Notes: generated by a model from the sequence alone, not told the origin. DNA of 64,000 nucleotides from Clostridiales bacterium (GCA_015055745.1 SVHS01000001.1:10094-74093), one strand, 5' to 3'. Shown: positions 5,077 through 56,378, numbered from the stretch's first letter. Translations and numbers: made by a program.

Positions 5077-7083
5077 ATGGGAAATAAAGAAAAATTTTAT
5101 ATTACAACTGCGATTGCTTATACTTCTGGCAAACCTCATATTGGCAATACATATGAGATTATTTTGTCTGATGCTATAGCGAGAGCAAAACGAATGCAGG
5201 GATATGATGTTTTCTTTATGACTGGCACTGATGAGCATGGACAAAAAATAGAAATGAAGGCTCAAGAGCAAGGTGTCTCTCCAAAAGTTTTTGTAGATGA
5301 TGTGGCGGGGAAAATAAAAAATCTTTGGGATTTGATGAACATTTCATATGATAAATTTATACGTACCACTGATGCTGATCATGAGAAAACTGTGCAAAAG
5401 ATATTTAAAAAGTTTTATGATCAGGGAGATATATATAAAGGACATTATGAAGGAATGTATTGTACACCTTGCGAAAGTTTTTGGACTGAGAGCCAGCTCG
5501 TAGAAGGCAAATGTCCAGATTGTGGTAGAGATGTAAAGCCGAGCCAAGAAGAGGCGTATTTCTTCAAGATGAGCCATTATGCCAAAAAATTGGTAAGACA
5601 CATAGTCGCTCATCCAGAGTTTATACAGCCGGTAGCTAGGAAGAATGAAATGATGAACAATTTCTTACTCGCTGATGAGTTTGTAGGCAAAAGTGATGAG
5701 GAATTGTTGACCGCGATAGAAAATGATAGCATAAAAACGAAATTGCAAGATTTATGTGTAAGTCGTAGCACATTCAAGTGGGGTATCCCAGTAGACTTCG
5801 ATGAAAAACATGTGGTCTATGTTTGGCTTGATGCGCTAAACAATTATATCACTGGTGTTGGCTTTGATACTGAGGAACCAAGCAATAGGTACAAAAAATT
5901 ATGGCCAGCAGATGTGCATGTGGTAGGTAAGGATATCGTAAGATTCCACACTATTTATTGGCCGATTTTCTTGATGGCTTTAGGCGAACCATTGCCAAAG
6001 CAGGTTTTAGGTCACCCTTGGTTATTGCAAGGCGGAGACAAGATGAGTAAGTCAAAAGGCAATGTGCTGTATGCTGATGATTTGGCGTCAGTATTTGGGG
6101 TGGATAGCGTAAGATATTATGTGCTTCGTGAGATGCCTTATGCCGCTGATGGCACTATTACTTGGGAGCTTTTATGTGAAAGAAATAACACGGATTTATC
6201 CAACATATTGGGCAATCTTGTAAAGCGTACTTTGGGTATGAGCAATCAATACTTTGATGGCAAAATCGTAAATTATAATGTTTCTGAGCCAGTAGATGAA
6301 GATCTAAAATCATTGGTAGTATCTATCAAAGATAAAGTAATCAATAAGGTAAATGAATATAAGGTTGCAGATGCATTGGAAGAATTGTGGACTTTATTTA
6401 GGCGAGCAAACAAATACATCGATGAGACTGAGCCATGGAATATCAACAAAGATGAAAACAAAAAAGAAAGACTTTCTACCGTGTTGTACAATTTGTTGGA
6501 ATCAATAAATATTGGTGCCAATTTGTTAACACCATTTATCCCAGAGACTGCTAATAAAATATTTAAAGAATTGAATGTCTCTAGTCGTAATATTGAAGAT
6601 TTGGATAAATTTGGTTTGGTCGAAGAATACAATGTGACTAAAGAACCTCAAATATTATTCAATAGGATAAAATTACCAGATATTCAGCATATCATCGATG
6701 ATATCGTAGCTAAGCAAAAAGCAGACAATGCTCCAAAGATAGAATTTAAAGAAATGGAACCTATCACTATAGATGATTTTGCCAAAGTGCAGATGAAGGT
6801 CGGTACAGTATTGCAGTGTGAGGCAGTGCCAAAGTCAAAACTTTTACACTCTACAGTAAGAGTAGGTACAAAGACTTTGTCTATCCTTAGTGGTATAGCA
6901 AAAGCATATACACCAGAGCAAATGGTGGGTAAAAAAGTAGTAGTAATTACCAATTTACCTCCTAGAGAGATGAAAGGATTACTAAGTGAAGGTATGATTA
7001 TCTGTGCTGAAGATGAGAGTGGCAACATTTCTCTTTTGAGTCCAGAGAGAGACATTATTCCAGACGGTAGCGATATTAGTTAA
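5077..7083 (+). CDS. metG: Methionine--tRNA ligase with C-terminal tRNA-binding (Trbp111/EMAPII-like) domain
   Basis: HIGH-type motif (KPHIGNTYE), KMSKS motif (DKMSKSKGN) and zinc knuckles (CTPCESF, CPDCG). The C-terminal ITIDDFAKVQMKVGTV... region is OB-fold-like. Confidence 0.97.
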   Translation: MGNKEKFYITTAIAYTSGKPHIGNTYEIILSDAIARAKRMQGYDVFFMTGTDEHGQKIEMKAQEQGVSPKVFVDDVAGKIKNLWDLMNISYDKFIRTTDADHEKTVQKIFKKFYDQGDIYKGHYEGMYCTPCESFWTESQLVEGKCPDCGRDVKPSQEEAYFFKMSHYAKKLVRHIVAHPEFIQPVARKNEMMNNFLLADEFVGKSDEELLTAIENDSIKTKLQDLCVSRSTFKWGIPVDFDEKHVVYVWLDALNNYITGVGFDTEEPSNRYKKLWPADVHVVGKDIVRFHTIYWPIFLMALGEPLPKQVLGHPWLLQGGDKMSKSKGNVLYADDLASVFGVDSVRYYVLREMPYAADGTITWELLCERNNTDLSNILGNLVKRTLGMSNQYFDGKIVNYNVSEPVDEDLKSLVVSIKDKVINKVNEYKVADALEELWTLFRRANKYIDETEPWNINKDENKKERLSTVLYNLLESINIGANLLTPFIPETANKIFKELNVSSRNIEDLDKFGLVEEYNVTKEPQILFNRIKLPDIQHIIDDIVAKQKADNAPKIEFKEMEPITIDDFAKVQMKVGTVLQCEAVPKSKLLHSTVRVGTKTLSILSGIAKAYTPEQMVGKKVVVITNLPPREMKGLLSEGMIICAEDESGNISLLSPERDIIPDGSDIS

Positions 7084-41910: not shown

Positions 41911-41938
41911 AAAAAGGACCTCATGTGAGGTCCTTTTT
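41911..41938. terminator. Bidirectional terminator between wzx and res
   Basis: AAAAAGGACCTCATGTGAGGTCCTTTTT, a palindromic stem flanked by A and T runs. Confidence 0.85.
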
Positions 41939-44136
41939 TATTTGAATATTTGGCTCAAGATTTTCCAGTCTTCAGATTGGATATCTTCATTATAGTTTTC
42001 CATACAAATGCACAATTCGTCTGATTGCTTGTCACAGCGGACAAAGCCACCTTTGAGATTGTATTTTTGTAGATATCTTTTTAGTTCTACAAATTTCTTT
42101 GATGAAAATGGATCTATATCTTCACTTTTTCCAGTGCGAGTAAATCCACCTTTTGTCTCGATAATCCAAATCTCACCCTTCAATGAAACAATATAGTCGG
42201 GATAGAAAAGTTTTTGGTGGTTTGAATTGTCTAGGTATACGATGGATAAATATTCCTCGCCTTTGTCTCCGTTTTTATAATACCATTCTACTGCATTGCA
42301 TTTTTCACAAAGTTTTTCAAATTTTCTCTCAGATGCAGATCTTGGTTCGGCAGAAAGTAGATATCCGTTGTATACATTTTTTGAGCTTTCTGTTTGGTCT
42401 TTGTTGGTGATATCGTAGGTAAATAATGTCTCAGTAGGGATTTTAAATTCTTTTTGAGATATTTCTTTGACATCTAGTACTAGCTGAGCTAATACTGTAG
42501 CCATAGCCTCACAGATAGTGTGCTTTAATAAATCTATATTGTTGATTACAAAGGCATATAGCTGACGAGTCGTGAGTGATAATAATTTATCATAATACTC
42601 AGTCTTGTCTACAAATAATTTTCCAAGTATTGTATTCATATAAGAATACTCCAAACCTATTTCTAGACCTAGACGGCTGACATTGTCATGATATACTCTA
42701 CCATGAGTATGAGTGTTTATAGATTCGCCAGCATTGATTTTATTAAATTCATTTTGGTTTATAGGTTTATCTAGTAAAGAAACTTTTCCAGATAAACTTG
42801 TGATTATGATATTGTCGGAGAAGATAAATCCTCTCGTTTCCAATCTGGTCTTATTTTCTGATTTGTTGTTTGTAAGACCAAACTCTTGCTTCATGTACAA
42901 AACGATAGACTGTAGTGCTTTCCTAGGGTCTCTTATGTCAGTCACCATTTTTCTTTGCTCTTTAGTCAATGTAAATTTTTTAAATTCGTTTTTCAAAAAC
43001 AAGGTCTTGGCATCTAATGCATTTTTACCTAAGCTTGATTTTACGCCAGCAGTAAATTTGCTATCAAAGGTATATAGATAACAGCTATCCAACAAGTCAC
43101 TGCCATAATGCTTTGCTTCTGGCATGCGTCTGATACGTCCGATAGTCTGTATCTCAAATGTCTCATCCATATTTTCACGAAGCTTTACTAATATGCTAGC
43201 TCTTGGACAGTCCCAGCCAGTAGCTACAGCTTGCTTTATGATGACGGCTATTTGCTCTGAGTTGTTTACCGAAATATTTTCTAGATTTTCATGTCTACCA
43301 GACAACCATAAAGACAATTTATTGTTTTGATAGTTTATACCTTTTTCTTCAAAAAACTTTTCTACTATAGACAATAGAGTATCTGAATTGTTTGGTAACT
43401 GGACGATGATCAATGGATTGATATTGACATTTCGGACCAAATATTGCTGATGAAGCTCTTGCTGTTTTGCTAAAGCTTTGTCCAATAAGTAGTTTGTAAG
43501 ATTATCTGTAGAGACTTCCTGTGGGAAATTTTCATTGATCACCAATAGCTTTTTTATCAAGCCTTCTGCTATAACGTCTTCTTCACTGACTTCTATCAAT
43601 TTTGCTTTTTTGTCAGGGAGTGGGGTAGCAGAGCATCGAATGATTTTATCTGTTTTAAAATACTGTACTATCTCATCAGCCTTACCAGTAAAGTTTTGAT
43701 GACTTTCATCTATTATTACTTTAAATTTTAAACCATCTGCGAAAGCTCTTTCTATGTATTCTAGGAAATTTGTCCTTTCGCTGTCTTTCAAAGCAGTGTT
43801 TCCTTTCTTCGTGAGTTTTTCCCAGTTTATAAAGCAGTTATCATTTTCTTCAAATCCGCTAGTCATGACATCGCATAAGAGTTTTGTCTGAGCGTTGTGG
43901 ATATATCTATCCATCTTTTCTTTGCTTTGTTCTTCTAGATTTCCTTTACCAGGGGTCAGCCAAACAAAGACTGTCTTAGAGTGGCCTTTGATGTATTCGT
44001 CCATAAAGTGGGTGAGAATAATTGTTTTACCACTACCAGTAGGACTCTTCAAGATGATGTCTCTTGTATCTTCTTCCATACTTTCCAATAATAATTTTAT
44101 GGTTTTTAATTGAAAATTAGCTAATCGTATATTCAT
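41938..44136 (-). CDS. res: Type III restriction enzyme, Res subunit
   Basis: SF2 helicase motif I SPTGSGKT and motif II IIDESHQ. C-terminal PD-(D/E)xK-like YPDYIV...IWIIETKG. It lies 1 nt downstream of the mod gene. Confidence 0.85.
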   Translation of the reverse strand: MNIRLANFQLKTIKLLLESMEEDTRDIILKSPTGSGKTIILTHFMDEYIKGHSKTVFVWLTPGKGNLEEQSKEKMDRYIHNAQTKLLCDVMTSGFEENDNCFINWEKLTKKGNTALKDSERTNFLEYIERAFADGLKFKVIIDESHQNFTGKADEIVQYFKTDKIIRCSATPLPDKKAKLIEVSEEDVIAEGLIKKLLVINENFPQEVSTDNLTNYLLDKALAKQQELHQQYLVRNVNINPLIIVQLPNNSDTLLSIVEKFFEEKGINYQNNKLSLWLSGRHENLENISVNNSEQIAVIIKQAVATGWDCPRASILVKLRENMDETFEIQTIGRIRRMPEAKHYGSDLLDSCYLYTFDSKFTAGVKSSLGKNALDAKTLFLKNEFKKFTLTKEQRKMVTDIRDPRKALQSIVLYMKQEFGLTNNKSENKTRLETRGFIFSDNIIITSLSGKVSLLDKPINQNEFNKINAGESINTHTHGRVYHDNVSRLGLEIGLEYSYMNTILGKLFVDKTEYYDKLLSLTTRQLYAFVINNIDLLKHTICEAMATVLAQLVLDVKEISQKEFKIPTETLFTYDITNKDQTESSKNVYNGYLLSAEPRSASERKFEKLCEKCNAVEWYYKNGDKGEEYLSIVYLDNSNHQKLFYPDYIVSLKGEIWIIETKGGFTRTGKSEDIDPFSSKKFVELKRYLQKYNLKGGFVRCDKQSDELCICMENYNEDIQSEDWKILSQIFK

Positions 44137-44137
44137 T

Positions 44138-45805
44138 TTAACCCTCCATATCTTTGTAGTAATAGTCAGGTATTACGCTTGTTTTGATATTCTTTTTCTT
44201 AAATAAGTCTTCTTGCTCCTTAGTAGGTAGCACATCAAGACCTAAATATATGGCTTTACACTCAGCAGGAATGTGACTAATGAATTCATCTAGCTCTTGA
44301 TCGGTCAATATGATGGCTACTTCGTTACTGGTGTCTATATCTATACCATTTTCTAATTCGATTAACTCTTTTGTGTGTTTCAAAAGCTCATCAGCGTATT
44401 CATAATAAAGCTGGTCTGATATAGGCACAAAATCTACTTTCATATATTTTAGGCTAGCTTTGTAGTCTTCTTCTTGAATAACTCTTTTCACTCTTTCGTA
44501 AGTCACATCTCGGCAAATATTATTTTCATTATTTGTACAGAGTATAAACTTACGATTTCCGTCATCTTCTGCATTAAGTTTCATCACTGCATGTCCAGTC
44601 GTACCACTGCCAGCGAAGAAATCCAATACAATCGCATTTTTTTTGTCAGCGATTACGGCATAAAGGCAGTCATATACGTTCCAAAGAGATTTTGGGAAAT
44701 CAAATGGAGATTCTGGCACAAGATGATTTATGATTTTCTTTCCATATTCATTTGAATCATAGCGAGAATCTATCCATACTGTTCTATAAGTTCCAAATGT
44801 TTTGCCCAATTCTATTTCATAAGTATTTTTATTTTTCTTTACCCTTAATAGATTTTGAATGTTTTCTACAGTTTGTCGAGCATATCTCCACTTTCTTTCT
44901 ATGCCTTTTATATCGATAGGGTAAATATAGTACAAGTCATCTATTTTTTCACATTGCTTTGGATGAATTGCCTCGTCGTATAAGACGTCTCCAAAACCAA
45001 CGATCTTCTCGCCATCTGTAATTATAGGATAAAAACAATTACGAGCATCTGATCTTAAAGATTCTCCACCATTGTCTCTTAGATTTCTCCAATCAATTTC
45101 TTCTTCTGAAATTTTTCTACCACCAATTATCTTTTCACCTTTAGGTATTACAAAATAGGCAAATTCATTTGTGTATGAAAAGTTTTTTCCTTGTATTCCT
45201 CTTGGGTTGTGCACAATAGTGACGCAAACATATTCATATCCTTCGCCAAAAATTTCTTCGAGTAATAATTTTAATGTGGCAACCTCATTTTCATCTATCG
45301 CACATATCAAGACGCCTTTAGGGGTAAGCAATTTTTTACACTTTGCCAATCTTTCACTCATCATGCTAAGCCATTTACTGTGTTTGTACATATCATTTGA
45401 ATCAACATAATCATTATTATATTTCCACGTTTTAGATCCTGTATTATATGGTGGATCAATGTATATTAAGTCGATCGCTCCTTTGTGGGTTTTTTCTAGT
45501 AGATTAAGAGAAGCGAGGTTATCACCTTCGATTAGGAAATTCATTTGCCCGTCATTGTTTATATACAAATCTTTATCTTCTACAAGTATAGGAGTATTGT
45601 TTTCTAAGATTTCATCGATAGCTTCTTTATGCTTTTCGTACACGATACCAAATTTTTTTCCTTTAATATCATTTTTTATATCCGCAATGTATGAAAGAAG
45701 TCTTGACGTATTTTCGTCTTGAGGACTAGCTGTGATAAACTGTTCGATTTGATTTATCTTATTTACGAGACTTTCTCTTTTTTCCTTTGAGATATTAGTA
45801 TCCAT
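44138..45805 (-). CDS. mod: Type III DNA methyltransferase, Mod subunit (beta-class N6A/N4C)
   Basis: Motif IV IYIDPPYNTG lies upstream of motif I LDFFAGSGTTGHA. The mod-then-res order is typical of Type III systems. Confidence 0.88.
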   Translation of the reverse strand: MDTNISKEKRESLVNKINQIEQFITASPQDENTSRLLSYIADIKNDIKGKKFGIVYEKHKEAIDEILENNTPILVEDKDLYINNDGQMNFLIEGDNLASLNLLEKTHKGAIDLIYIDPPYNTGSKTWKYNNDYVDSNDMYKHSKWLSMMSERLAKCKKLLTPKGVLICAIDENEVATLKLLLEEIFGEGYEYVCVTIVHNPRGIQGKNFSYTNEFAYFVIPKGEKIIGGRKISEEEIDWRNLRDNGGESLRSDARNCFYPIITDGEKIVGFGDVLYDEAIHPKQCEKIDDLYYIYPIDIKGIERKWRYARQTVENIQNLLRVKKNKNTYEIELGKTFGTYRTVWIDSRYDSNEYGKKIINHLVPESPFDFPKSLWNVYDCLYAVIADKKNAIVLDFFAGSGTTGHAVMKLNAEDDGNRKFILCTNNENNICRDVTYERVKRVIQEEDYKASLKYMKVDFVPISDQLYYEYADELLKHTKELIELENGIDIDTSNEVAIILTDQELDEFISHIPAECKAIYLGLDVLPTKEQEDLFKKKNIKTSVIPDYYYKDMEG

Positions 45806-46411: not shown

Positions 46412-47482
46412 ATGAATATTAATAAAATAGATGAAACTATAAAACTATACAAAAATTATTTGAGACATAATAATCAATCTAAAAATGATTTTAATGATAG
46501 AAAGGCTAGAATAGCGTATTATCAAAAATTTAATAAAGAAAGTTTTTTAAAAATAACAGAAGAAGATTTTATTGAGTTTATCGGAAAATTGTGGGCTTCT
46601 TCAATGTATGGTAGTAAAAAATATTTAGTAGATCAAATGATATTAAGTAATAAAGGGTTTGACAACTTAAAGTTGATTCTTGCGGATTTTATATATGGAA
46701 AACAAGATTTGTCATCAAGGTGGGATAAATTCCTAAAAGAAGCAAAGTTTTTTGGTCCTTCATATATGAGTGAAATATTGGGGTATATTTATCCAAATGA
46801 TTATGCATTGGCAAACAATCAGGTTATTAAAGCCTTGGATTATCTAGAAATGCCAAAAGTTCCACATTACAACTATCAATTTACTGGTAAAAAATATTTA
46901 GAAATTTGTGATACTGTTAAACATTTAGCAAAAAGACTTGGCGACGCTGGGGTAGATTGTGAAAATCTGCTCGCTGTAGATTATTACTTGTGGGAAGTGA
47001 CAAGATTAACAGCCGATAAATCTTTGAATGAAATTAAGACAGCCGAAAAACCTATAACTAATAAAGAACAGGAGTTTATTCACAAAGAAATAATTGACAA
47101 GATTGTTGAAATTGGTGGATTGCTTGGATTTGAAGCAAAATCTGAAGTTAAAGTTGGAAAAGGTGCAATTGTGGATGCTGTTTGGAGTATAAATATTGGA
47201 AATATGGGTCAAATAATGTATGTTTTTGAAGTCCAAACAAAAGGAAGTATTGATAGTTTGCTTTTAAATTTGCAAAAAGCTAACAATAATAAATCTGTCC
47301 AATCGATAGTGGCGGTTTCGGACGAAGTTCAACTTCAAAAGATTAAAAATGAAAGCGAAGAAATTGATACGCTGAAAGATTTGAAACTGTGGGACTATAA
47401 AGATGTTCTAAATGTTTATGATTCTTTAAATAATGCTATGACTTCTATAAATAAGCTGGGATTGGTGCCAAAAAGCTTTTAG
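46412..47482 (+). CDS. Uncharacterised 356-aa protein; the C-terminal region has a PD-(D/E)xK-like pattern (candidate nuclease)
   Basis: A TAGGAG ribosome-binding site precedes the start. C-terminal ...IVEIGGLLGFEAKSEVKVGKGAIVDAVW...(about 19 aa)...VFEVQTKGSIDSLLLNLQKA. The N-terminal ~200 aa are helical and of no confidently recognised family. Confidence 0.55.
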   Translation: MNINKIDETIKLYKNYLRHNNQSKNDFNDRKARIAYYQKFNKESFLKITEEDFIEFIGKLWASSMYGSKKYLVDQMILSNKGFDNLKLILADFIYGKQDLSSRWDKFLKEAKFFGPSYMSEILGYIYPNDYALANNQVIKALDYLEMPKVPHYNYQFTGKKYLEICDTVKHLAKRLGDAGVDCENLLAVDYYLWEVTRLTADKSLNEIKTAEKPITNKEQEFIHKEIIDKIVEIGGLLGFEAKSEVKVGKGAIVDAVWSINIGNMGQIMYVFEVQTKGSIDSLLLNLQKANNNKSVQSIVAVSDEVQLQKIKNESEEIDTLKDLKLWDYKDVLNVYDSLNNAMTSINKLGLVPKSF

Positions 47483-47531
47483 TAAAATGTGAATAAAATT
47501 TTACTGATTGAGATTTACTGTAAAATATTTT

Positions 47532-47564
47532 AACAAATTTGTTGAAAATGCTTGACAAATTTGT
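47532..47564. promoter_or_regulatory. Two copies of the palindrome ACAAATTTGT, 22 bp centre to centre, overlapping a TTGACA -35 box upstream of the Type I operon
   Basis: AACAAATTTGTT at 47532-47543, ACAAATTTGT at 47555-47564, TTGACA at 47552-47557. Confidence 0.5.
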
Positions 47565-47609
47565 TTTTTTATGCTAGTTTAATTTTGAAAAATAACAAGA
47601 GGAGGGTTT

Positions 47610-48167
47610 ATGCAGCTTAAAGATGTCGCTGAAATTCAATATTCCATACCTGTTGCAACCAAAAAGAAAGAAATAGTGAATGGTAGATGGCTAAATGGAT
47701 CTGGATTGTTAGAAAATAATCAAACAATTACGATTGATACATCGTATGAATATGATTTCAAGTCGGTACTTCAGGTTTCGCAAGATGATTTATTGTTGAA
47801 AAGGATATCTCCAACATTTGTAAATATTTATGAGGATATTCAAAGTGCTTATATAGGCACAAATATTATTCGCATTCGTGTTAAAGAAGAATATGATCCT
47901 TATTTTGTTATGTTGGTTTTGGAAAATCATCTAAAAGAACTTAATGAAAAATCAAATAATGGTACACGCATAAGTGCGATTAATAGGGAATCCTTAGAAA
48001 GTGTTGAAATTCCGAATGTTGAAATTAAACAACAAAAGAGAATAGGAAACTGGATAAAACTAAAATACAAATCAATGCTCCTTCAAGAAGAGCTGCATAA
48101 CAAGATTGCATTAAAAAACAAATTAATAGAAAAACAAATTTTATTAAAAATAAAGGGAGAAAATTAA
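47610..48167 (+). CDS. hsdS: Half-size Type I specificity subunit (one target-recognition domain plus one conserved helical region)
   Basis: 185 aa. LKDVAEIQYS is a TRD-type start. The C-terminal coiled-coil region IKQQKRIGNWIKLKYKSMLLQEELHNKIALKNKLIEKQIL resembles HsdS conserved regions. The gene ends 2 nt before hsdM. Confidence 0.7.
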   Translation: MQLKDVAEIQYSIPVATKKKEIVNGRWLNGSGLLENNQTITIDTSYEYDFKSVLQVSQDDLLLKRISPTFVNIYEDIQSAYIGTNIIRIRVKEEYDPYFVMLVLENHLKELNEKSNNGTRISAINRESLESVEIPNVEIKQQKRIGNWIKLKYKSMLLQEELHNKIALKNKLIEKQILLKIKGEN

Positions 48168-48169
48168 TT

Positions 48170-49768
48170 ATGGAAATTAAGAAAACTACAAAAAGTGATA
48201 TAACTAAGGCTTTATGGGCGGGAGCTGATACATTTAGGGATAATATAGATGCGTCAAACTATAAAGATTACGTTTTGTCAATGCTATTTGTTAAGTATTT
48301 GAGTGATACTTTTAAAGAAAATGTTGACAATTTAAAGAAAGAATATGAAGGTATAAGATTAGAAAGACAAATTCAAAACTTACCTTTTGTATTAAAGGAA
48401 GAAAGCACATTTGACTACTTATATAAAAATAGAAGCAATATCGATATTGGTTCCTTAATTTGTCAAGCACTAACAGAAATTGAAACTTCGAATCCTATTT
48501 TGGCAGGTGTGTTTAGAGGTATAGATTTTAACAGCGAAGCAAATTTGGGTAAGAAAGAACAAAAGAATCCCGTTCTAAGATCTTTGCTAGAAGATTTTGC
48601 AGGTTTAGATTTAAGACCTAGCATGATAGAAACAAAAGAAGGTGAAGTTCCTGCTGATGTTATTGGTGATGCTTATGAATATATGATTGGCGAATTTGCA
48701 ACTATGGCTGGTAAAAAGGCGGGATCATTCTATACTCCACAAGCAGTTTCTGAAATTATGGCTCAAATTGTTGACCCTCAACCTAGAGATAGAGTTTACG
48801 ACCCAACATGTGGATCAGGTTCTTTATTGATTAGGGCAGCTAAAAAGGGTGGTTTAGATAAAGTTTCAATTTACGGACAAGAAAAAAATAATAGTGCAAT
48901 TTCAATGGCTAGAATGAATATGTTTTTGCATGAAATTAAAGATGCTAAAATTGCATGGGGCGATACATTGGCAAATCCTCAACATCTAGATAGTGATGGC
49001 AACTTAATGAAATTTGACTGTATTGTTGCTAATATGCCATTTAGTTTAGATAAGTGGGCAAATGGATTTAATCCTGGCGGTGAAGTGGTCTCAGACGATG
49101 ATGAAAAATCTGCAAAGAAAAAAGTTGAGTTTAAGATGGAACCGGGATTGGATAGATGGCATCGTTTTGATTTGGGTGTTCCTCCTGCAAGTAAAGGTGA
49201 TTGGGCATTCTTACTACATATGATTTACAGCATGAGTGGTGACGGAAGAATTGCGGCAGTTGCACCACATGGGGTTTTGTTTAGAGGTGCAAGTGAGGGA
49301 AAAATTCGTAAAGAAATTATTGATAAGAACCTCATTGATGCTGTTATTGGATTACCTGAAAACTTGTTCTATGGCACAAGCATTCCTGCAAGCATTATTG
49401 TATTTAGAAAGAACAAGACTAATACAGATGTTTTGTTTATTGATGCATCTAAAGATTGCGATAAAGTAAAAGCAAAAAATCAATTAAACGAAGAAACTCA
49501 CGTTAAAACAATTGTAGATACATATCAAGCTTATAAAAATGGTGATTACACTGCGGCAGAAAAAGAAAAATATAGCCATGTTGCAACATTGGAAGAAATT
49601 AAGTCTAATGACTATAACCTAAACATTCCTAGATATGTTGATACTTTTGAAGAAGAACCAGAAATTGATATAAATCAAGTAAATGCTGATATTGCACAAA
49701 TAAAATCTGAACTTGCAGAAGTTGAAAAGCAAATGCAACAATATTTAAAAGAGTTGGGTTTGGAGTAG
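48170..49768 (+). CDS. hsdM: Type I restriction-modification system methyltransferase subunit
   Basis: N-terminal HsdM_N-like region (LWAGADTFRDNIDASNYKDYVLSMLFVKYLSD), motif I DPTCGSGSLL and motif IV NMPFS. Confidence 0.93.
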   Translation: MEIKKTTKSDITKALWAGADTFRDNIDASNYKDYVLSMLFVKYLSDTFKENVDNLKKEYEGIRLERQIQNLPFVLKEESTFDYLYKNRSNIDIGSLICQALTEIETSNPILAGVFRGIDFNSEANLGKKEQKNPVLRSLLEDFAGLDLRPSMIETKEGEVPADVIGDAYEYMIGEFATMAGKKAGSFYTPQAVSEIMAQIVDPQPRDRVYDPTCGSGSLLIRAAKKGGLDKVSIYGQEKNNSAISMARMNMFLHEIKDAKIAWGDTLANPQHLDSDGNLMKFDCIVANMPFSLDKWANGFNPGGEVVSDDDEKSAKKKVEFKMEPGLDRWHRFDLGVPPASKGDWAFLLHMIYSMSGDGRIAAVAPHGVLFRGASEGKIRKEIIDKNLIDAVIGLPENLFYGTSIPASIIVFRKNKTNTDVLFIDASKDCDKVKAKNQLNEETHVKTIVDTYQAYKNGDYTAAEKEKYSHVATLEEIKSNDYNLNIPRYVDTFEEEPEIDINQVNADIAQIKSELAEVEKQMQQYLKELGLE

Positions 49769-49771
49769 ATT

Positions 49772-50452
49772 ATGATAGAATTTGATTATAAAGCAAAAAC
49801 TTACACATGTCCTTATTGTGGAAATAAACAAGCATTTGAATATAATTGTAAAGTTCAATCATGTGGATATAATAGGTCGTGGAGTGTAAGAGGAGATTGG
49901 GTTAAATCTGATGTGAAAGTTTATCACATAGAATGTTCAAATGAAAAATGTAAACAGATGTCTGTAATAGGATTTATTGAATCTGGAAACAGTCAGTTTG
50001 ATATAATCCCAAGTTTTACTTGTAAGACATTTCCTAATTATGTACCTAAACAAATAAGAGATGATTATCAAGAAGCATGCTCAATAATAGAATTGTCTCC
50101 TAAGGCTGCTGCAACGTTGCTAAGAAGATGCCTACAAGGAATGCTTCATGATTTTTGGGATATACATGGAAAAAATTTAAATGCAGAAATAACACAATTA
50201 AAAGATAGGGTATCAACAAGCCAATGGAAGGCAATAGATGGCGTTAGAAGTATTGGAAATATTGGAGCTCACATGGAACAAGACATTAATTTGATTATTG
50301 ATATAGATTTGGGAGAAGCAAAAAAATTACAATCTTTAATCGAACTTTTGGTTGATAAGTGGTATATAAGCAGGCATGATGAAGAGGCCTTGTTTGATGA
50401 TATATCAAATATTTCCGAAGAAAAGGAAAAAGAAAGAAAAGGCGAAAATTAA
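49772..50452 (+). CDS. DUF4145-like protein with an N-terminal Cys-rich (zinc-ribbon-like) region
   Basis: CPYCGNK...CKVQSCG...ECSNEKCKQ, followed by the DUF4145-type core (IRDDYQEACSIIELSPKAAATLLRRCLQGML...IDGVRSIGNIGAHME). Confidence 0.7.
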   Translation: MIEFDYKAKTYTCPYCGNKQAFEYNCKVQSCGYNRSWSVRGDWVKSDVKVYHIECSNEKCKQMSVIGFIESGNSQFDIIPSFTCKTFPNYVPKQIRDDYQEACSIIELSPKAAATLLRRCLQGMLHDFWDIHGKNLNAEITQLKDRVSTSQWKAIDGVRSIGNIGAHMEQDINLIIDIDLGEAKKLQSLIELLVDKWYISRHDEEALFDDISNISEEKEKERKGEN

Positions 50453-50456
50453 ATTT

Positions 50457-51599
50457 ATGGAGAAAATTATGAGAGAGATTCCAGCCGGGTGGCACACTGT
50501 AACATTAAAAGAAGTTTATGATTTCAAAAATGGTTTAAACAAAGAGAAAGAGGCGTTTGGAAAAGGTACACCAATAGTAAATTACATGGATGTGTATAAA
50601 AACTACGAGTTAACTGTTTCAAAGTTAAAAGGCTTAGTTTCTTTAAGCACTAATGAAATACATAACTTTAATGTGAAAAGAGGAGATGTTTTCTTTACTA
50701 GAACTTCTGAAACGATTGAAGAAATAGGTTTTTCTGCAGTGATGAATGACGAGTGTGAAAATGTTGTGTTTAGCGGATTTGTTTTAAGGGCTAGGCCTAA
50801 AAATAATATTATAACTAGCAACTATGCTAAATATTGCTTTTTATCTTGGCCAGTGAGAGAAGAAATAAAAAGAAAAAGTTCATATACAACTAGAGCTTTA
50901 ACAAGTGGAAAGATGTTGGGTGATGTGGAAGTTGTTTTACCTAAAACAGCAGAAGAACAAGATAGAATTGTTTCCATATTAGATTGCTGGGCGAAGGCTA
51001 TTGCATTGCAAGAGAACAAAATTAAGAAGTTGGAAGAAAAGAAAAAAGCTCTTATGCAAAAACTTTTAAAACCTAAAGAAGATTGGAAATCATTTAAACT
51101 TGGCGATGCATGTGAAATAAAAACTGGTAAACTTGATGCAAATCAGATGGAAAATAATGGTAAATATCCGTTTTTTACATGTTCAAAAGAAATATATGCT
51201 ATTAATAATTATGCTTTTGATTGTGAAGCTCTCTTAATGGCGGGGAATGGAGAAATTGGGGATATTAAATATTATAACGGCAAATTTAATGCTTATCAAA
51301 GAACCTATGTGTTGTCAAATTTTAAATTTAATATAAAATATGTAATGTTTTACTTATTGCATAATTTTGATAAATCTGTGTGTAAGGGTGTTCAAAAAAG
51401 CTCTATGCCGTATATAAAATTGGAATTATTGAGCAATGCTATAATTTATTATCCACAGAACTACGATAAGATAGTAAAATTATTTGATACGATAGAGTCA
51501 AAATTGCAGAAACAAAAAGATTTATTAAACAATTATAAATTACAACAAAAAGCTTTAATGCAAAAATTATTAACAGGAAAGGTAAGAGTTAATGGATAA
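50457..51599 (+). CDS. hsdS: Type I specificity subunit, full length (two target-recognition domains)
   Basis: The start was moved to the ATG at 50457 (the tracked ORF start at 50376 overlaps the upstream gene). TRD1 is WHTVTLKEVYDFKNG... with central conserved region EEQDRIVSILDCWAKAIALQENKIKKLEEKKKALMQKLL. TRD2 is FKLGDACEIKTGKLD... with distal region LQKQKDLLNNYKLQQKALMQKLLTGKVRV. Confidence 0.9.
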   Translation: MEKIMREIPAGWHTVTLKEVYDFKNGLNKEKEAFGKGTPIVNYMDVYKNYELTVSKLKGLVSLSTNEIHNFNVKRGDVFFTRTSETIEEIGFSAVMNDECENVVFSGFVLRARPKNNIITSNYAKYCFLSWPVREEIKRKSSYTTRALTSGKMLGDVEVVLPKTAEEQDRIVSILDCWAKAIALQENKIKKLEEKKKALMQKLLKPKEDWKSFKLGDACEIKTGKLDANQMENNGKYPFFTCSKEIYAINNYAFDCEALLMAGNGEIGDIKYYNGKFNAYQRTYVLSNFKFNIKYVMFYLLHNFDKSVCKGVQKSSMPYIKLELLSNAIIYYPQNYDKIVKLFDTIESKLQKQKDLLNNYKLQQKALMQKLLTGKVRVNG

Positions 51600-52407
51600 T
51601 TTGGGTGTTATTTCAATTGCTGTTGCTGCGGTTTCTTGTTTAATTTCTTTATTTAGTTATTTTAATAATAGAAATAAAGAGTATATTGAAAAGCTTGATG
51701 CATGGAGAAATAATTTTAGCAATAAGATCAATAATTTCTTAGAATTTTGTGGAGAAAATAATGCTTTTGCGTTTAAATTTGATTATTCTAATAGCTTAAT
51801 GTTTAATTTCAATTCAAAAAAGGATTCAGAGCAGTATAATGCTTATGTAAAATCAATTGTTGTACAAAGAGATAAACTTAATACCTTGTATCAAGAAGCA
51901 AATGCTGTTATACATATATCTTTCGATGAAAAAGATGAAAATCAACTTTTAATTGAGAAAATGATTAATGAATTGTTTTTATGTATGGACAACCACTTGT
52001 CATACATCTTAGATTTGAACGATACTAGAGAAAAGTTCTTTTGTAATATGCTAAGAGAAAAAGATGTTATGGATTTATTGAATGAAATGTTCGATAATAT
52101 AAAGAATTTAACATTATTGCATCGTTCAATATCAAGGCTGAAGAATGAAACAGTAAACAGTATAGATTTAAACTTAATAAACAATAGAAATATTTTAAAT
52201 TTTTCAACTAAAAAACTATTAAAGTTAATGGTTAATAATCTTAATAGTTTTGATGAGTTTAAGTTTTATAATAGTAAAAACAATGATGGGTTGAAAAAAG
52301 AATTTTGTGAATGGTTAGTTAGATTTGAAAAAGAGATAGATACAAACAAAGAAGAAATTTTAAGTATATTAAAATGTGCTAAACGAAATTTTCAAAGAGG
52401 TATATAA
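51592..52407 (+). CDS. Uncharacterised membrane-anchored 271-aa protein embedded between hsdS and hsdR
   Basis: The start overlaps the hsdS stop by 8 nt, and the stop overlaps the hsdR ATG (ATAATGA). N-terminal TM helix LGVISIAVAAVSCLISLFSYF. The remainder is Asn/Lys-rich and helical, with no family recognised. Confidence 0.6.
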   Translation: MDNLGVISIAVAAVSCLISLFSYFNNRNKEYIEKLDAWRNNFSNKINNFLEFCGENNAFAFKFDYSNSLMFNFNSKKDSEQYNAYVKSIVVQRDKLNTLYQEANAVIHISFDEKDENQLLIEKMINELFLCMDNHLSYILDLNDTREKFFCNMLREKDVMDLLNEMFDNIKNLTLLHRSISRLKNETVNSIDLNLINNRNILNFSTKKLLKLMVNNLNSFDEFKFYNSKNNDGLKKEFCEWLVRFEKEIDTNKEEILSILKCAKRNFQRGI

Positions 52408-55400
52408 TGAAACATACGATATTTAATGAAAGACCTGAATGTCAAGACAGGTTAATAAAAGTTTTAGTTGGATTGGGGTATAAATATATATCTAGATCTG
52501 AAGCCGAAGAAAAAAGAGGAAACTTAAAAAATGTTTTATTTGTCGATGAACTGACAAAGTTTTTAAGCATGCAAACTTATAAGTATAAAAACACTAAATA
52601 TCGTTTTTCTGGCGAGTCTATTGTTAATGCTACAAGAGCAATTGATGCATCTCTTTTGCAAGGTTTGTCAATGGCTACTAAAGAAATATATAATCTGTTG
52701 ACTTTAGGTATTAGCGTTGAGGAAACTGTTGGCGTGGATAAAGATATGCCTATTAAGCAATCGTTTGATTTGCACTTTATAGATTTTGATCATCCGGAAA
52801 ACAATATTTGGCAAGTTACAGAAGAGTTTTCTGTTGAAAGAAATAATGGACAGTTTGCAAGACCTGATATTGTTATTATGGTTAATGGTATTCCATTAGC
52901 AGTTATTGAATGTAAGAAATCAAGTGTTGATGTAAAAGAAGGAATTAATCAAAATGTAAGAAACATGTTGCCTGACTATATACCGAATTTGTTTAAGTTT
53001 AGTCAGTTGGTTTTTGCTGTCAATCCAAATAAAGTGAAATATGGAACTTGTGGTACAGGTGCAGATTATTTTGTTGAATGGAGAGAAGATAAAGACTTAT
53101 TAAATTGGCAAAAAGATGTGTGTGAAAGAATTGTTCCTGATAAGCAAATTTTAGAGCAAGATAAAATTGCTGTATCAATGTTATCACAAAAAAGATTTTT
53201 AGATTTAATAAACAACTATATTTTATTTGATGGAAATATTAAAAAGGTTGCAAGACATCAACAATTTTTTGCTGTTAATAAGGCAATGGATAGATTGAAT
53301 GGTGTTGATAATGTTGATGCTGAAGGCGGTGTTATTTGGCATACCCAAGGAAGCGGCAAATCTCTTACAATGGTTATGCTTGTAAAAAAGATTTTAAAAG
53401 GAAAAGCTTCAGATAATCCCAGATTTGTTATTGTTACAGATAGAATAGATTTAGATAAACAAATTAAAGATAATTTTGCCAAAACGGCAATGAATCCGGT
53501 TAGAGCTGGAACTGGTAAAGGACTCAAAGCTTTGCTTAAAGATAAAAGTAATATTATTATAACCACACTGATTAATAAATTTGAAACTGTTATAAAGAAT
53601 AGATATATTGAACAAAGTTCTGATAATGTATATGTCTTAATTGATGAAGCACATCGTAGTAATTATAGTGCTATGTACAATTACATGAAAGAAGTTTTAC
53701 CTCACTCTAAAATGATTGCATTTACAGGAACTCCATTAATTGCAAATCAAGACAAAAATACTATTAAGAAGTTTGGTGATTTAATTCACAGTTATACAAT
53801 GAAGAGAGCAATAGAAGATGGGATTACTGTCCCGTTGGTTTATGAAGGAAGAAAGGTTGTACAAAATGACCCAACAAAAACTATTGATAATTATTTTGAA
53901 AGCCTAACAACTGGTTTATTGGAAGAACAAAAGAAGGAATTAAAAGAAAAATTTAGCAAGTTTAAAAGGTTGGCAGAGGCTACAAGTAGAATTAACTTAT
54001 TGGCTTTCGATATTTGTGATCATTTTAGATCTTATTGTTTACCAAAAGGATTAAAAGCAATGGTTGTTTGTTCGTCAAGAGCTGCAGCTGTTGAAATGTT
54101 TGAAATCATTAAACAAAATAGTCGTGGAGATATACAACCAGCAGTTTGTATTTCTTTTGGTGCAAATGATGAAGATGAGGAAAATATTACAAATAGTGAT
54201 TTAAAGAAAATAAACAATTATCATAAAACATATGTTGAAAAGTTATTTGGAAATAACGATGAAAGGTATGATGAATCAATAACAGATAGATTTAAGAATC
54301 CGGAAGGTGATGTCAATATGTTGATAGTAAAAGACAAGCTTTTGACAGGTTTTGATGCGCCAGTTGCAGGAGTTCTTTATGTAGATAAGCCAATTCAACA
54401 ACATTCATTGTTACAAGCTATTGCTAGGGTTAACCGTGTATATAAAGGTAAAGATTTTGGTTTAATAGTTGACTATTGGGGAATATTCACAAAGTTAAAT
54501 AAAGCTATCGATATGTATGACGATGCTGAGTCTGGTTTTAATCAATTTGATAAAAGTGATATTGAAGATACCATATTTGGTGCTGTTGATGAAAAGAATA
54601 ATCTAGAAAAAAGTTATTCTACTTTAAAAGAATTCTTTACATTATCAGAGAACGCTACAAGTAATGAATGGCAAGAATACTTAAAAGAAGAGGCTGTAAG
54701 AAAAGAATTTTATGAAAAACTTAAAGATTTTGAAAAAAGATTGTTTTTGGCTTTATCTAATAGAAGTATTTTTGTTGAGGTTGGTATTGATAAAATAGAA
54801 TTTTACAAAAACAAATGGTTGTTCTTTAAAAAATTGAGAGAAGCGGTTTCAATGCGTTATGATGAGGTTTCAGATTTTGCGAAATATGAAGAAGGAATGA
54901 AGAATCTAATAAATACATTTGTCAATGCTACCGATGTTGTGACGGTGGTTAAACCAGTGTCAATTGGTGATGAAAAAGGTATGGAAGATGCTATTAAACA
55001 AATGGATTCTAAAGCAGCAAAAGCAGACTTTATTAAAACTAGAATTGAAGCCAGGTTAAAACAGGCTAGATATGAAGATCCATTATTGTTTGAAGAATTT
55101 TCGGATAAAATTAAAAAAACATTAGCGGAATATGAAATATCAAGAAATGCAGATGTGTATTTAACTGAAATGGAAGAGATGGCAAACGATATTAGGAATG
55201 GTATTACAACAAAAGAATATCCTTCTTCTATTAAATCAGATACTGATGCTAAAGTTTTCTATGGTTCAATAGTCAATAGGATAACTAAGACTGTTGGGAA
55301 GATAAGTTTGAATCAGGAAGAAATGGTTGCTGATTTTGCTATCAAAATTAAAGAGGCAATAATAGATAATACAAAAAGAGATTGGAAATATAATGAATCG

Positions 55401-55547
55401 GTTCATAAGCAAATACACAGAGTATTAGATGATATAATTTTTGATTTGTTTGATGAATTGTTGATTGATACAAATAAAGAAGAAAATATTGATATTATTG
55501 ACTTAATAGAAGATGATATTATGAAGGCTGCAGTTGTGAGGTATTAA
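52407..55547 (+). CDS. hsdR: Type I restriction enzyme, R subunit
   Basis: N-terminal PD-(D/E)xK (RPDIVIMVNGIPLAVIECKK), helicase motif I TQGSGKSLTM, motif II IDEAHRS, later QAIARVNR. Confidence 0.95.
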   Translation: MKHTIFNERPECQDRLIKVLVGLGYKYISRSEAEEKRGNLKNVLFVDELTKFLSMQTYKYKNTKYRFSGESIVNATRAIDASLLQGLSMATKEIYNLLTLGISVEETVGVDKDMPIKQSFDLHFIDFDHPENNIWQVTEEFSVERNNGQFARPDIVIMVNGIPLAVIECKKSSVDVKEGINQNVRNMLPDYIPNLFKFSQLVFAVNPNKVKYGTCGTGADYFVEWREDKDLLNWQKDVCERIVPDKQILEQDKIAVSMLSQKRFLDLINNYILFDGNIKKVARHQQFFAVNKAMDRLNGVDNVDAEGGVIWHTQGSGKSLTMVMLVKKILKGKASDNPRFVIVTDRIDLDKQIKDNFAKTAMNPVRAGTGKGLKALLKDKSNIIITTLINKFETVIKNRYIEQSSDNVYVLIDEAHRSNYSAMYNYMKEVLPHSKMIAFTGTPLIANQDKNTIKKFGDLIHSYTMKRAIEDGITVPLVYEGRKVVQNDPTKTIDNYFESLTTGLLEEQKKELKEKFSKFKRLAEATSRINLLAFDICDHFRSYCLPKGLKAMVVCSSRAAAVEMFEIIKQNSRGDIQPAVCISFGANDEDEENITNSDLKKINNYHKTYVEKLFGNNDERYDESITDRFKNPEGDVNMLIVKDKLLTGFDAPVAGVLYVDKPIQQHSLLQAIARVNRVYKGKDFGLIVDYWGIFTKLNKAIDMYDDAESGFNQFDKSDIEDTIFGAVDEKNNLEKSYSTLKEFFTLSENATSNEWQEYLKEEAVRKEFYEKLKDFEKRLFLALSNRSIFVEVGIDKIEFYKNKWLFFKKLREAVSMRYDEVSDFAKYEEGMKNLINTFVNATDVVTVVKPVSIGDEKGMEDAIKQMDSKAAKADFIKTRIEARLKQARYEDPLLFEEFSDKIKKTLAEYEISRNADVYLTEMEEMANDIRNGITTKEYPSSIKSDTDAKVFYGSIVNRITKTVGKISLNQEEMVADFAIKIKEAIIDNTKRDWKYNESVHKQIHRVLDDIIFDLFDELLIDTNKEENIDIIDLIEDDIMKAAVVRY

Positions 55548-56272
55548 TGATAAAAAGTAAATTAGAGCTTGGTAAAATAAACGGGGATATTTATGTTCTA
55601 ATTGAAAAAAAAGATATAAAAAATGTTCACTTGAAAGTATTTAGGGATTTGTCAGTAAAATTATCGGTGCCTAATAAAGTTCCGGATGATTGGATAATAT
55701 CTTTTTTAGAGAAGAAAAAGGAATGGATAAATAAACAGATATTTAAGTATAAACAGTCTTCAGGATCTAACAATATGGTATACTTAAAAAATGGTTGTTC
55801 GATTCAAATGTTGGGTAAAGATTTCCGAATATATATAAAATCAGGTAAAAAGAAAATTGTAAAAGAAGAGAAAAAACTTATTATATATCTTGAGGATGTT
55901 TCTGATTTGGAAACAGCTACAAAAATTTTTGATGATTGGTGGAAGAAAGAATCTAAGATATTATATGAAGTCAAAGTGAAAGAGTTTTATAATTCTATAT
56001 TTAAAAAATATAAAATAAATATTCCAACAATTCAAATTAGAAAAATGAAGACAATGTGGGGTAATTGTTGTCCGCAAAAGTCGTTAATCACTTTAAATAA
56101 TTATTTGTTCAAAGCTAATACTTTAGGTATAGAATATGTGATTATGCACGAAATGGCACATCTTTTATATCCAAAGCATAATGAAAATTTTTATTCATTC
56201 ATGACTATTCATATGCCTGATTGGAAAGAAAGAAAGCAAATTTTGGATTTGGATGTCGTTCAGGGAGTTTAA
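55547..56272 (+). CDS. DUF45/YgjP-like (M48-related, SprT-like) zinc metallopeptidase
   Basis: WGNCCPQKSLITLN plus HExxH (VIMHEMAHLLYPKH). The ATG overlaps the hsdR stop (TAATGA). Confidence 0.8.
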   Translation: MIKSKLELGKINGDIYVLIEKKDIKNVHLKVFRDLSVKLSVPNKVPDDWIISFLEKKKEWINKQIFKYKQSSGSNNMVYLKNGCSIQMLGKDFRIYIKSGKKKIVKEEKKLIIYLEDVSDLETATKIFDDWWKKESKILYEVKVKEFYNSIFKKYKINIPTIQIRKMKTMWGNCCPQKSLITLNNYLFKANTLGIEYVIMHEMAHLLYPKHNENFYSFMTIHMPDWKERKQILDLDVVQGV

Positions 56273-56279
56273 AAAAATA

Positions 56280-56302
56280 CGAACCTTTTTGGTTCGTTTT
56301 TT
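56280..56302. terminator. Hairpin terminator between the Type I operon and the tRNA 3' end
   Basis: CGAACC-TTTTT-GGTTCG flanked by A and T runs. Confidence 0.75.
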
Positions 56303-56378
56303 TGGAGCTAATGACGGGAATCGAACCCGTGACCTCCACCTTACCGGAGTGGTGCTCTACCTACTGAGCTACATTAGC
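56303..56378 (-). tRNA. tRNA-Thr(GGU)-like, 76 nt with encoded CCA; the anticodon loop reads CCGGTAA
   Basis: The minus strand reads GCTAATG-TA-GCTC-AGTAGGTA-GAGC-A-CCACT-CCGGTAA-GGTGG-AGGTC-ACGGG-TTCGATT-CCCGT-CATTAGC-T-CCA. It folds by eye into a clean cloverleaf, but positions 32 and 33 are both C. Confidence 0.75.

Follow-up and report, generated by a model that had tools for sequence, protein, structure and literature searches.

Seven open reading frames (ORFs) on the plus strand at 47610-56272 of a 64,000-nucleotide (nt) stretch of DNA from a Clostridiales bacterium (GCA_015055745.1 SVHS01000001.1:10094-74093; the window) encode a Type I restriction-modification (R-M) system interspersed with further genes. 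The locus raises the question of whether these further genes form one accessory module coupled to the Type I enzyme, as an earlier note on this DNA had proposed, or have been collected separately. The ORFs are, in order, a half-size hsdS, hsdM, a DUF4145 gene, hsdS, a gene for a membrane-anchored protein (protein X), hsdR and a gene for a YgjP-like metallohydrolase. The explanation that we consider probable is a five-gene Type I backbone (half-hsdS, hsdM, hsdS, hsdR and the YgjP-like gene) with two recombination-prone slots in which other defence genes collect. This reading draws, through sequence comparison, on the gene identities, the catalytic and zinc-binding residues, the promoter and terminator, the variability of the slots and the purifying selection on all genes (ratios of nonsynonymous to synonymous substitution rates, dN/dS, of 0.04-0.17).

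Backbone and variable slots

The comparison set comprised about 30 related loci, drawn from contigs carrying relatives of protein X, from seven loci retrieved from GTDB with HsdR and from other sources. Six of the GTDB loci encode an HsdR that is 76-99% identical to that of the window; the value is 65% for the seventh (L022), a 3.5-kb contig carrying hsdR only. The backbone of half-hsdS, hsdM, hsdS, hsdR and YgjP-like gene is kept in metagenome-assembled genomes (MAGs) of Clostridia, and over L001-L009 and L018-L024 these five genes persist while the contents of two positions vary, which is the pattern of embedded defence genes. The peptidase, which the earlier note had counted among the extras interleaved with the core genes, and the half-size HsdS are thus constant parts of the backbone.

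The first variable position, between hsdM and hsdS (slot A), holds at least seven alternative cargoes across the related loci: DUF3644, equivalent to PDC-S19 (L005 and L018); SMODS with NucC, a minimal CBASS-like pair (L003, 2869-4427); a NucC-like gene (L001 and L002); KwaB with KwaA, constituting Kiwa (L007, 5277-6779, and L009); a CAP12/Pycsar-type TIR gene, equivalent to PDC-S35 (L019 and L020); DUF6680 (L023); and a DUF4145 gene (the window, L021 and L024). As a further variant, a TIR domain is fused to the C-terminus of HsdM in L006 (4498-6759). The second position, between hsdS and hsdR (slot B), is empty in L018, contains DUF4160 in L019, L020 and L023 and contains an X-family gene in the window, L001-L009 and L021.

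DNA homology between the window and L005 covers the promoter, half-hsdS and hsdM (47492-49758) and breaks at the end of hsdM; it is lost over the slot A cargo and the first target-recognition domain (TRD) of hsdS and is regained in the central conserved region of hsdS (50943-51089) and then from 51522 to the stop codon of the peptidase gene (56273). In L018, which lacks X, homology to the window resumes at 52410, the start of hsdR. The synonymous divergence (dS) between the window and L005 is 0.10 for hsdR, 0.30 for hsdM, 0.66 for X, 0.81 for the peptidase gene and 1.48 for half-hsdS, and because it differs so strongly between modules the operon is read as a recombinational mosaic. MobL or Mob_Pre relaxase, RepA_N, TnpV or tyrosine integrase genes are present beside several sister Type I operons (L006, 14178-16864; L008, 7184-10070; L032, 1-4440; L033, 2060-2983), and the backbone therefore also travels on mobile elements.

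The arrangement resembles a natural 'cassette rack', in which one backbone with two slots swaps among RAZR, Kiwa, the minimal CBASS-like pair, TIR and others. Such swapping among defence genes makes X, DUF6680, DUF4160, DUF2513 and a polytopic membrane family (family Y, described below) good candidates for defence functions.

Operon organization and core Type I subunits

The six successive junctions measure +2, +3, +4, -8, -1 and -1 nt; hsdS and X overlap by 8 nt, X and hsdR share ATAATGA, and hsdR and the peptidase gene share TAATGA. Both the gene list and the junction sequences agree with those given earlier. All six junctions are of 4 nt or less, compared with eight of the 28 other co-directional pairs in the window (p ~5e-4 by naive multiplication of the junction frequency). 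A probable promoter, read directly, is located at 47552-47580 (+) and consists of TTGACA (47552-47557), a 17-nt spacer and TGc-TAGTTT (47575-47580). It was not listed by a generic scan because its -10 hexamer is weak, and its position matches that of a near-consensus TTGACA-17-TG-TATAAT 5' of half-hsdS in L003 and L018. An intrinsic terminator lies 3' of the last stop codon (56279-56304, +), with a GC-containing stem of 7 bp (ACGAACC/GGTTCGT), a 5-nt loop and a T-run (hairpin and T-run at 56279-56297), and no convincing internal terminator was found in the operon. With tight junctions, one promoter and one terminator, a single transcript would be the most economical reading. Inverted repeats of 16-17 nt (94% complementary) flank half-hsdS at 47557-47574 and 48108-48141, with one arm lying in the promoter spacer; these A/T-rich matches were judged to be probably due to chance.

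The HsdM, HsdS and HsdR families are encoded together, as in a Type I R-M system, and profile matches support each of the gene identities assigned in the earlier note, including the half-size S subunit, DUF4145 and the YgjP-like HExxH protein. The methyltransferase HsdM (532 residues, 48170-49768, +) matches TIGR00497 at 286 bits (cut-off 242.75) and contains N6_Mtase and HsdM_N domains, with motif I present as DPTCGSG at residue 211. Motif IV is NMPF (residues 288-291, 49031-49042) and not the usual NPPF; NMPF is kept in HsdM of the window, L005, L018 and L019, and NPPF is found in six other HsdM sequences examined. The dN/dS of hsdM is 0.04-0.06, and HsdM with NMPF is argued to be functional because of this strong purifying selection (0.04). 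The restriction and translocase subunit HsdR (1046 residues, 52407-55547, +) matches TIGR00348 at 505 bits (cut-off 284.55), is composed of HSDR_N, SWI2_SNF2 and T1R_D3-like domains with a DEAH motif at residue 413, and is 99% identical to HsdR of L005 and 76-88% identical to HsdR of Clostridia MAG loci.

The full-length HsdS (380 residues, 50457-51599, +) contains two TRDs and matches Methylase_S in two stretches (6.6e-29) and PADLOC Specificity_I models at up to 8e-49. Its start at ATG 50457 gives the 4-nt gap after the DUF4145 gene, and the frame is open back to 50376; an alternative start at ATG 50469 has a better Shine-Dalgarno sequence (GGAG) than 50457 and aligns with the called start in L001 and L003. 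The half-size HsdS (185 residues, 47610-48167, +) consists of one TRD and a C-terminal helical conserved region, matches Methylase_S in a single stretch (Pfam, 1.5e-6, profile positions 8-165 of 168) and is matched by many PADLOC Specificity_I models. A counterpart of 183-199 residues occupies the first position in L003, L005-L007, L009, L018-L021, L023, L024 and L031 and in the Acetobacter locus L027, and half-hsdS has a dN/dS of 0.10-0.17.

The presence of an extra single-TRD S subunit in the operon places the locus among systems that combine half-size and full-length HsdS. In one such system, BlihIA of Bacillus licheniformis, single-TRD and two-TRD HsdS are encoded in one operon without shuffling repeats and both co-purify with the complex (PMC12429846); both S subunits are required for methylation in Staphylococcus xylosus, according to work cited in that paper. 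The window shares the half-size and full-length pair and the absence of shuffling repeats with BlihIA, for which, in contrast, no embedded cargo is reported. A role of half-hsdS as a spare for shuffling (phase variation) was ruled out, as half-hsdS and hsdS have no common DNA repeat of 16 nt or longer and no pairwise protein similarity, and no recombinase family matched any operon gene or any scanned adjacent gene.

The RAZR-like protein of slot A

The slot A cargo of the window (226 residues, 49772-50452, +) is a RAZR/PD-T7-4-like protein with an N-terminal cysteine zinc ribbon and a DUF4145 HEPN ribonuclease (RNase) domain. It matches the PADLOC PD-T7-4 model (PDLC04109) over its full length (2.6e-21, residues 5-222, profile positions 8-206 of 211), as well as Pfam PF13643 (1.2e-11) and chain OA of PDB entry 9y9c (3.7e-12), with RSIGNIGAH opposite RIVGNQAVH. 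PD-T7-4 has been renamed RAZR, an Escherichia coli RNase combining a zinc finger with a divergent HEPN (DUF4145) domain, which polymerizes around ring-shaped phage proteins (Gp77, T7-type portal) and cleaves single-stranded RNA, leading to abortive infection (PMC13017515). Arg146 and His154, which are essential in E. coli RAZR (PMC13017515), have their counterparts in the catalytic pair Arg159-x7-His167 of the window protein. The zinc ribbon is formed by CPYC at residues 13-16, weakly aligned to CPHC of 9y9c, and by Cys55-x4-Cys60. Residues that are invariant in an alignment of 15 homologues are Cys13, Cys16, Cys60, Arg159, Asn163 and His167.

The earlier suggestion of a backup or abortive-infection layer thus appears sound for at least one gene, which encodes a full-length PD-T7-4/RAZR homologue with its zinc-binding and catalytic residues kept, and the analogy with PrrC drawn there is apt in spirit, since a predicted RNase of the suicide-effector type sits inside the hsd locus. 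Homologues of the RAZR-like protein are abundant (1126 clusters at E <= 1e-5), and a Clostridiales MAG has an annotated protein identical to it. All three sampled homologues (56-58% identity) are encoded between hsdM and hsdS, in unrelated HsdM/HsdR families, so that this Clostridial subfamily shows a marked preference for that position; DUF4145 was listed in 2013 as a HEPN family "in operon with R-M" (PMC3710099). Because the E. coli prototype stands alone, the RAZR-like protein is itself probably autonomous in mechanism.

The YgjP-like metallohydrolase

The last gene (55547-56272, +) encodes a YgjP-like zinc metallohydrolase of 241 residues (DUF45; annotated as M48/SprT family), which matches PF01863 at 2.4e-45 and 155.5 bits (cut-off 26) and shows a weak SprT-like match (7e-7). 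The metal site HEMAH-x5-H (residues 201-211, with HEMAH at 201-205) is kept in 10 further loci. The junction between hsdR and the peptidase gene measures -4 to +5 nt in ten loci, in which HsdR identity is 30-99% and which belong to Bacillota, Pseudomonadota and Cyanobacteriota. YgjP homologues annotated as SprT or M48 metalloproteases are found 3' of hsdR on Klebsiella IncF plasmids, in Acetobacter and on Synechocystis pSYSX; Klebsiella accounts for 355 of the 492 matching plasmid records, and the Acetobacter locus with the hsdR-YgjP pair starts with the same half-S gene. COG1451 was reportedly placed with Type I R-M systems by Makarova and colleagues in 2011.

Restriction alleviation mediated by ClpXP is described in one publication (PMC11109961), and the YgjP/M48-like protein could by analogy with ClpXP on EcoKI be a dedicated HsdR protease for restriction alleviation. 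Such a role is suggested by the close coupling to hsdR in ten loci and three phyla, by the HExxH-x5-H motif that is intact in all of them and by the weak similarity to SprT-like/WLM proteins, which are families of DNA-protein-crosslink proteases. However, E. coli YgjP has been annotated as a nucleotide pyrophosphatase rather than as a protease, members of the family also occur away from hsd genes, and the copy in L001 is split. In addition, the paper on the RRDM island of enteropathogenic E. coli (EPEC) assigns no role to its M48 gene (PMC12255303). A dedicated HsdR protease is a tentative proposal, considered rather unlikely. The very widespread coupled hsdR-YgjP/M48 pair could bear on how Type I enzymes other than EcoKI avoid self-restriction.

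Protein X

Slot B of the window contains protein X (271 residues, 51592-52407, +), which has an N-terminal transmembrane helix (about residues 4-24) and an all-alpha body that is predicted to be cytoplasmic. No match was obtained in Pfam, NCBIfam or PADLOC, including permissive Pfam scans, and a profile of X matched no PDB sequence, in agreement with its earlier description as a membrane-anchored protein of no recognizable family. A search of 5.8 billion clustered proteins yielded three close relatives (91, 73 and 52% identity). About six distant relatives were obtained from an exhaustive profile search of 1.84e9 representatives and a wider profile search of the 5.8e9-protein set, the latter giving only two further clusters; the family totals about ten clusters. 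No relative emerged when GTDB was scanned with the X alignment, and the divergence of the wider alignment precluded its back-translation.

In every member of the family, a single hydrophobic helix at the N-terminus precedes basic residues. According to the 'positive-inside' rule, basic residues after a transmembrane helix point to the cytoplasmic side, and the helical body of X is therefore most likely to be in the cytoplasm. An AlphaFold2 model calculated from eight sequences is entirely helical, with a predicted local distance difference test score (pLDDT) of 84 and a predicted template-modelling score (pTM) of 0.80; a structure from the four close sequences was discarded (pLDDT 44), and the addition of four distant relatives raised this value to 84. 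Foldseek searches of the model against PDB and BFVD returned only generic helical bundles (E > 0.01). The gene is under purifying selection (dN/dS 0.07-0.17). X relatives of known context all adjoin hsdR, in three HsdR backgrounds that are 78-99%, 38% and 21% identical to the window HsdR, and in the last of these X lies 3' instead of 5' of hsdR. The simplest view is that X would be one more embedded component, for defence or for sensing, located at the inner membrane.

The constant proximity to hsdR suggests an alternative in which X is a PrrC-like guardian, that is, a membrane-anchored sensor or effector bound to HsdR or the holoenzyme and fired by a phage anti-restriction protein, with membrane damage as one possible outcome. 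The occurrence of X beside hsdR in all members with context and in three HsdR backgrounds, its translational coupling to hsdR and the purifying selection on it are consistent with this role, and a like exclusivity has been reported for PrrC among embedded systems (bioRxiv 2024.01.29.577857). However, the sample is small (about ten clusters and three independent contexts), the backbone persists without X in L018, L019 and L023, and no similarity of X to PrrC or to any effector was found in library, structure and PDB searches, so that a guardian of this kind is unlikely. More doubtful is an extended form of this proposal, in which X, as a single-pass, all-helical protein of the inner membrane produced in step with HsdR, would found a new class of Type I-dependent guardian. 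Such a guardian would tether or monitor the complex where phage DNA enters the cell, or would kill via the membrane when the complex is disabled, with the YgjP/M48 protein as the matching HsdR protease.

In the RAZR-bearing Type I loci L029, L034 and L035, slot B is occupied by an unrelated membrane family, Y, of 305-379 residues (L029, 9483-10622; L034, 9344-10261; L035, 7521-8453), the gene being preceded by a small ORF. Family Y appears to be multi-pass by our own reading of its sequences and consensus; it has no significant Pfam match (Claudin_2 at 18.7 bits compared with a cut-off of 29.1) and no PADLOC match. A distant relationship to X was rejected, given hmmsearch E values of 0.6-0.9 and the multi-pass appearance of Y compared with the single N-terminal transmembrane helix of X. 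Membrane proteins just 5' of hsdR therefore recur, with different families.

Support for separately acquired cargo

The probable reading of a Type I backbone with interchangeable defence cargo has several observations to contend with. The RAZR-like protein and E. coli RAZR are only distantly related (phmmer 3.7e-12, with most of the match in the linker and HEPN domain). In E. coli the trigger is recognized by the zinc-finger domain, which in the RAZR-like protein is both longer and divergent, and its trigger may therefore be a different one. E. coli PD-T7-4 works alone and is found beside an integrase, not embedded in a Type I system, and the placement of the Clostridial subfamily between hsdM and hsdS could mean a tighter tie to R-M than that of a cargo. 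The X alignment shows no conserved catalytic-looking residues, and the case for X as a defence component is accordingly one of guilt by embedding only. Among plasmid homologues of the peptidase, the closest (from Cetobacterium) has no hsd gene as its neighbour, and the peptidase gene of L001 is split into two ORFs (6282-7008), reflecting either a pseudogene or an assembly error.

A reading of the extra genes as passengers, selfish or neutral (addiction modules or hitch-hikers), without a defence role is improbable. The slots do look like recombination hot spots in a mosaic operon, and some sister loci are on mobile elements with integrase and MobL, but the great majority of the cargoes in slot A are defence genes, either known or candidate (RAZR, Kiwa, SMODS with NucC, TIR and PDC-S19). 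Moreover, dN/dS is at most 0.17 for all of the extra genes, and Pfam, NCBIfam and PADLOC scans of X and the RAZR-like gene gave no signature of a transposase or a toxin-antitoxin system.

Least probable is the single co-evolved module of DUF4145 protein, X and peptidase functionally coupled to the Type I enzyme: the three genes are translationally coupled in one operon and all three families are strongly associated with Type I loci, so that the lack of enrichment named in the earlier note as a refutation was not seen, but they assort separately, since L005 has X and the peptidase with DUF3644 in place of DUF4145, L018 has the peptidase without X or DUF4145, L021 has X with only a distant DUF4145 protein (~22% identical; PD-T7-4 at 3e-7), L024 has the distant DUF4145 type without X (and an hsdS-hsdR gap of ~360 nt with no called ORF), DUF4145 occurs in L029 and L034 with neither X nor the peptidase, and L014 has X without the peptidase or DUF4145.

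Relationship to known systems

The locus is an ordinary example of a published principle, the nesting of defence genes in Type I R-M operons. Precedents include PrrC in EcoprrI, RloF in Campylobacter and TgvAB on VPI-2 of Vibrio cholerae, and a 'guilt-by-embedding' survey found embedded genes to be frequent in Type I R-M, BREX and DISARM, with 17,432 non-redundant embedded genes over these three and with 96.7% of the embedded genes in Hma, BREX, DISARM and Type I R-M oriented like the system that flanks them (Payne et al., bioRxiv 2024.01.29.577857). The window resembles these systems and TgvAB in having same-strand genes nested among hsd genes, many of the nested genes being independent defence systems. 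Unlike the general survey, the two-slot backbone with natural swaps of cargo concerns one specific Clostridial lineage, and the window differs from published embedded loci in its RAZR-like and X cargo, in the use of both slots and in having a half-size S gene first instead of a repressor gene.

The closest arrangement is the EPEC RRDM island, a seven-ORF RptR-HsdM-HsdS-DarT-DarG-HsdR-M48 operon that provides phage defence and whose hsdS-hsdR site was described by its authors as a potential recombination hotspot (PMC12255303). Like the window, it is a single-promoter seven-ORF Type I operon with cargo between hsdS and hsdR and an M48 gene after hsdR. It differs in its cargo (DarTG2 and not RAZR or X), in its first gene (the repressor RptR and not a half-size HsdS), in its empty hsdM-hsdS slot and in its host, a gammaproteobacterium and not a member of Clostridia. 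The earlier statement that this is not a described system therefore holds for the exact gene combination and fails for the arrangement, as both Type I-embedded defence genes and the seven-ORF M48 island have been published.

E. coli RAZR and the window protein share a cysteine zinc ribbon, a linker and a DUF4145 HEPN domain with R-x7-H, in 219 and 226 residues, respectively, whereas their sequence similarity is low and the zinc-finger domain of the window protein is ~14 residues longer. The gene for RAZR stands alone beside an integrase, in contrast to the hsdM-hsdS position of the window subfamily. The likeness to EcoprrI lies in a putative RNase suicide effector inside a Type I hsd locus, with which it would be co-expressed. 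PrrC, however, is an ABC-ATPase-like anticodon nuclease that is kept latent through the R-M enzyme and released by phage Stp, whereas RAZR is triggered by ring-shaped phage proteins (PMC13017515) and not by inhibition of R-M. A PrrC-type ABC-ATPase-like N-domain with an anticodon-nuclease C-domain is present in none of the seven proteins, as judged by Pfam, NCBIfam and PADLOC searches.

The residual novelty consists of protein X, which has neither a PADLOC model nor a Pfam family, and of the widespread hsdR-YgjP/M48 pairing. The family of X lacks annotation and has to date been encountered only beside hsdR; as no PADLOC model matches X, it is not captured in PADLOC-DB v2.0.0.

Possible mode of action

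With one promoter driving the operon, the Type I enzyme would act as a first layer by restricting unmodified incoming DNA. By analogy with BlihIA and with half-S dimerization, the half-size HsdS probably joins the same HsdM and HsdR and adds or modifies a specificity. Phages that escape could be detected at a late stage, once phage proteins that form rings (the portal, for example) nucleate RAZR-like oligomers; the HEPN sites of these oligomers would then cleave RNA and abort the infection, as in E. coli RAZR. The conserved translational coupling suggests that HsdR is the substrate or the partner of the metallohydrolase, which might clear HsdR that has stalled or attacks host DNA (restriction alleviation), or might degrade an anti-restriction protein. 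For X, the choice would be between an embedded defence gene that acts autonomously and a guardian of the PrrC kind with a tie to HsdR.

Genomic surroundings

A divergent Type III R-M pair (41938-45805, -) lies upstream of the Type I operon and consists of mod (44138-45805, -; PADLOC MTase_III, 1e-92) and res (41938-44136, -; ResIII, with REase_III at 1e-15). The pair and the Type I operon make up a small defence island, bordered by glycosyltransferase genes on one side and by relA/spoT on the other.

An ORF of 356 residues (46412-47482, +), situated between these two R-M systems, has no Pfam, NCBIfam or PADLOC match. Its homologues, all hypothetical, are found on a Monoglobus pectinilyticus plasmid (48% identity), on plasmids of haloarchaea and on Methanothermobacter pRMAS01 (34%), where genes for a nuclease-related protein and an N6 methylase are nearby. 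It was rejected as a member of the operon, since homology to L005 begins after it (47492) and other genes take its place in sister loci, and an ORF of the same length in L034 proved to be unrelated. The protein is a possible stand-alone defence candidate. On the other side, a tRNA-Thr (GGT) gene (56303-56378, -) directly follows the operon terminator and may mark the island boundary or an integration site.

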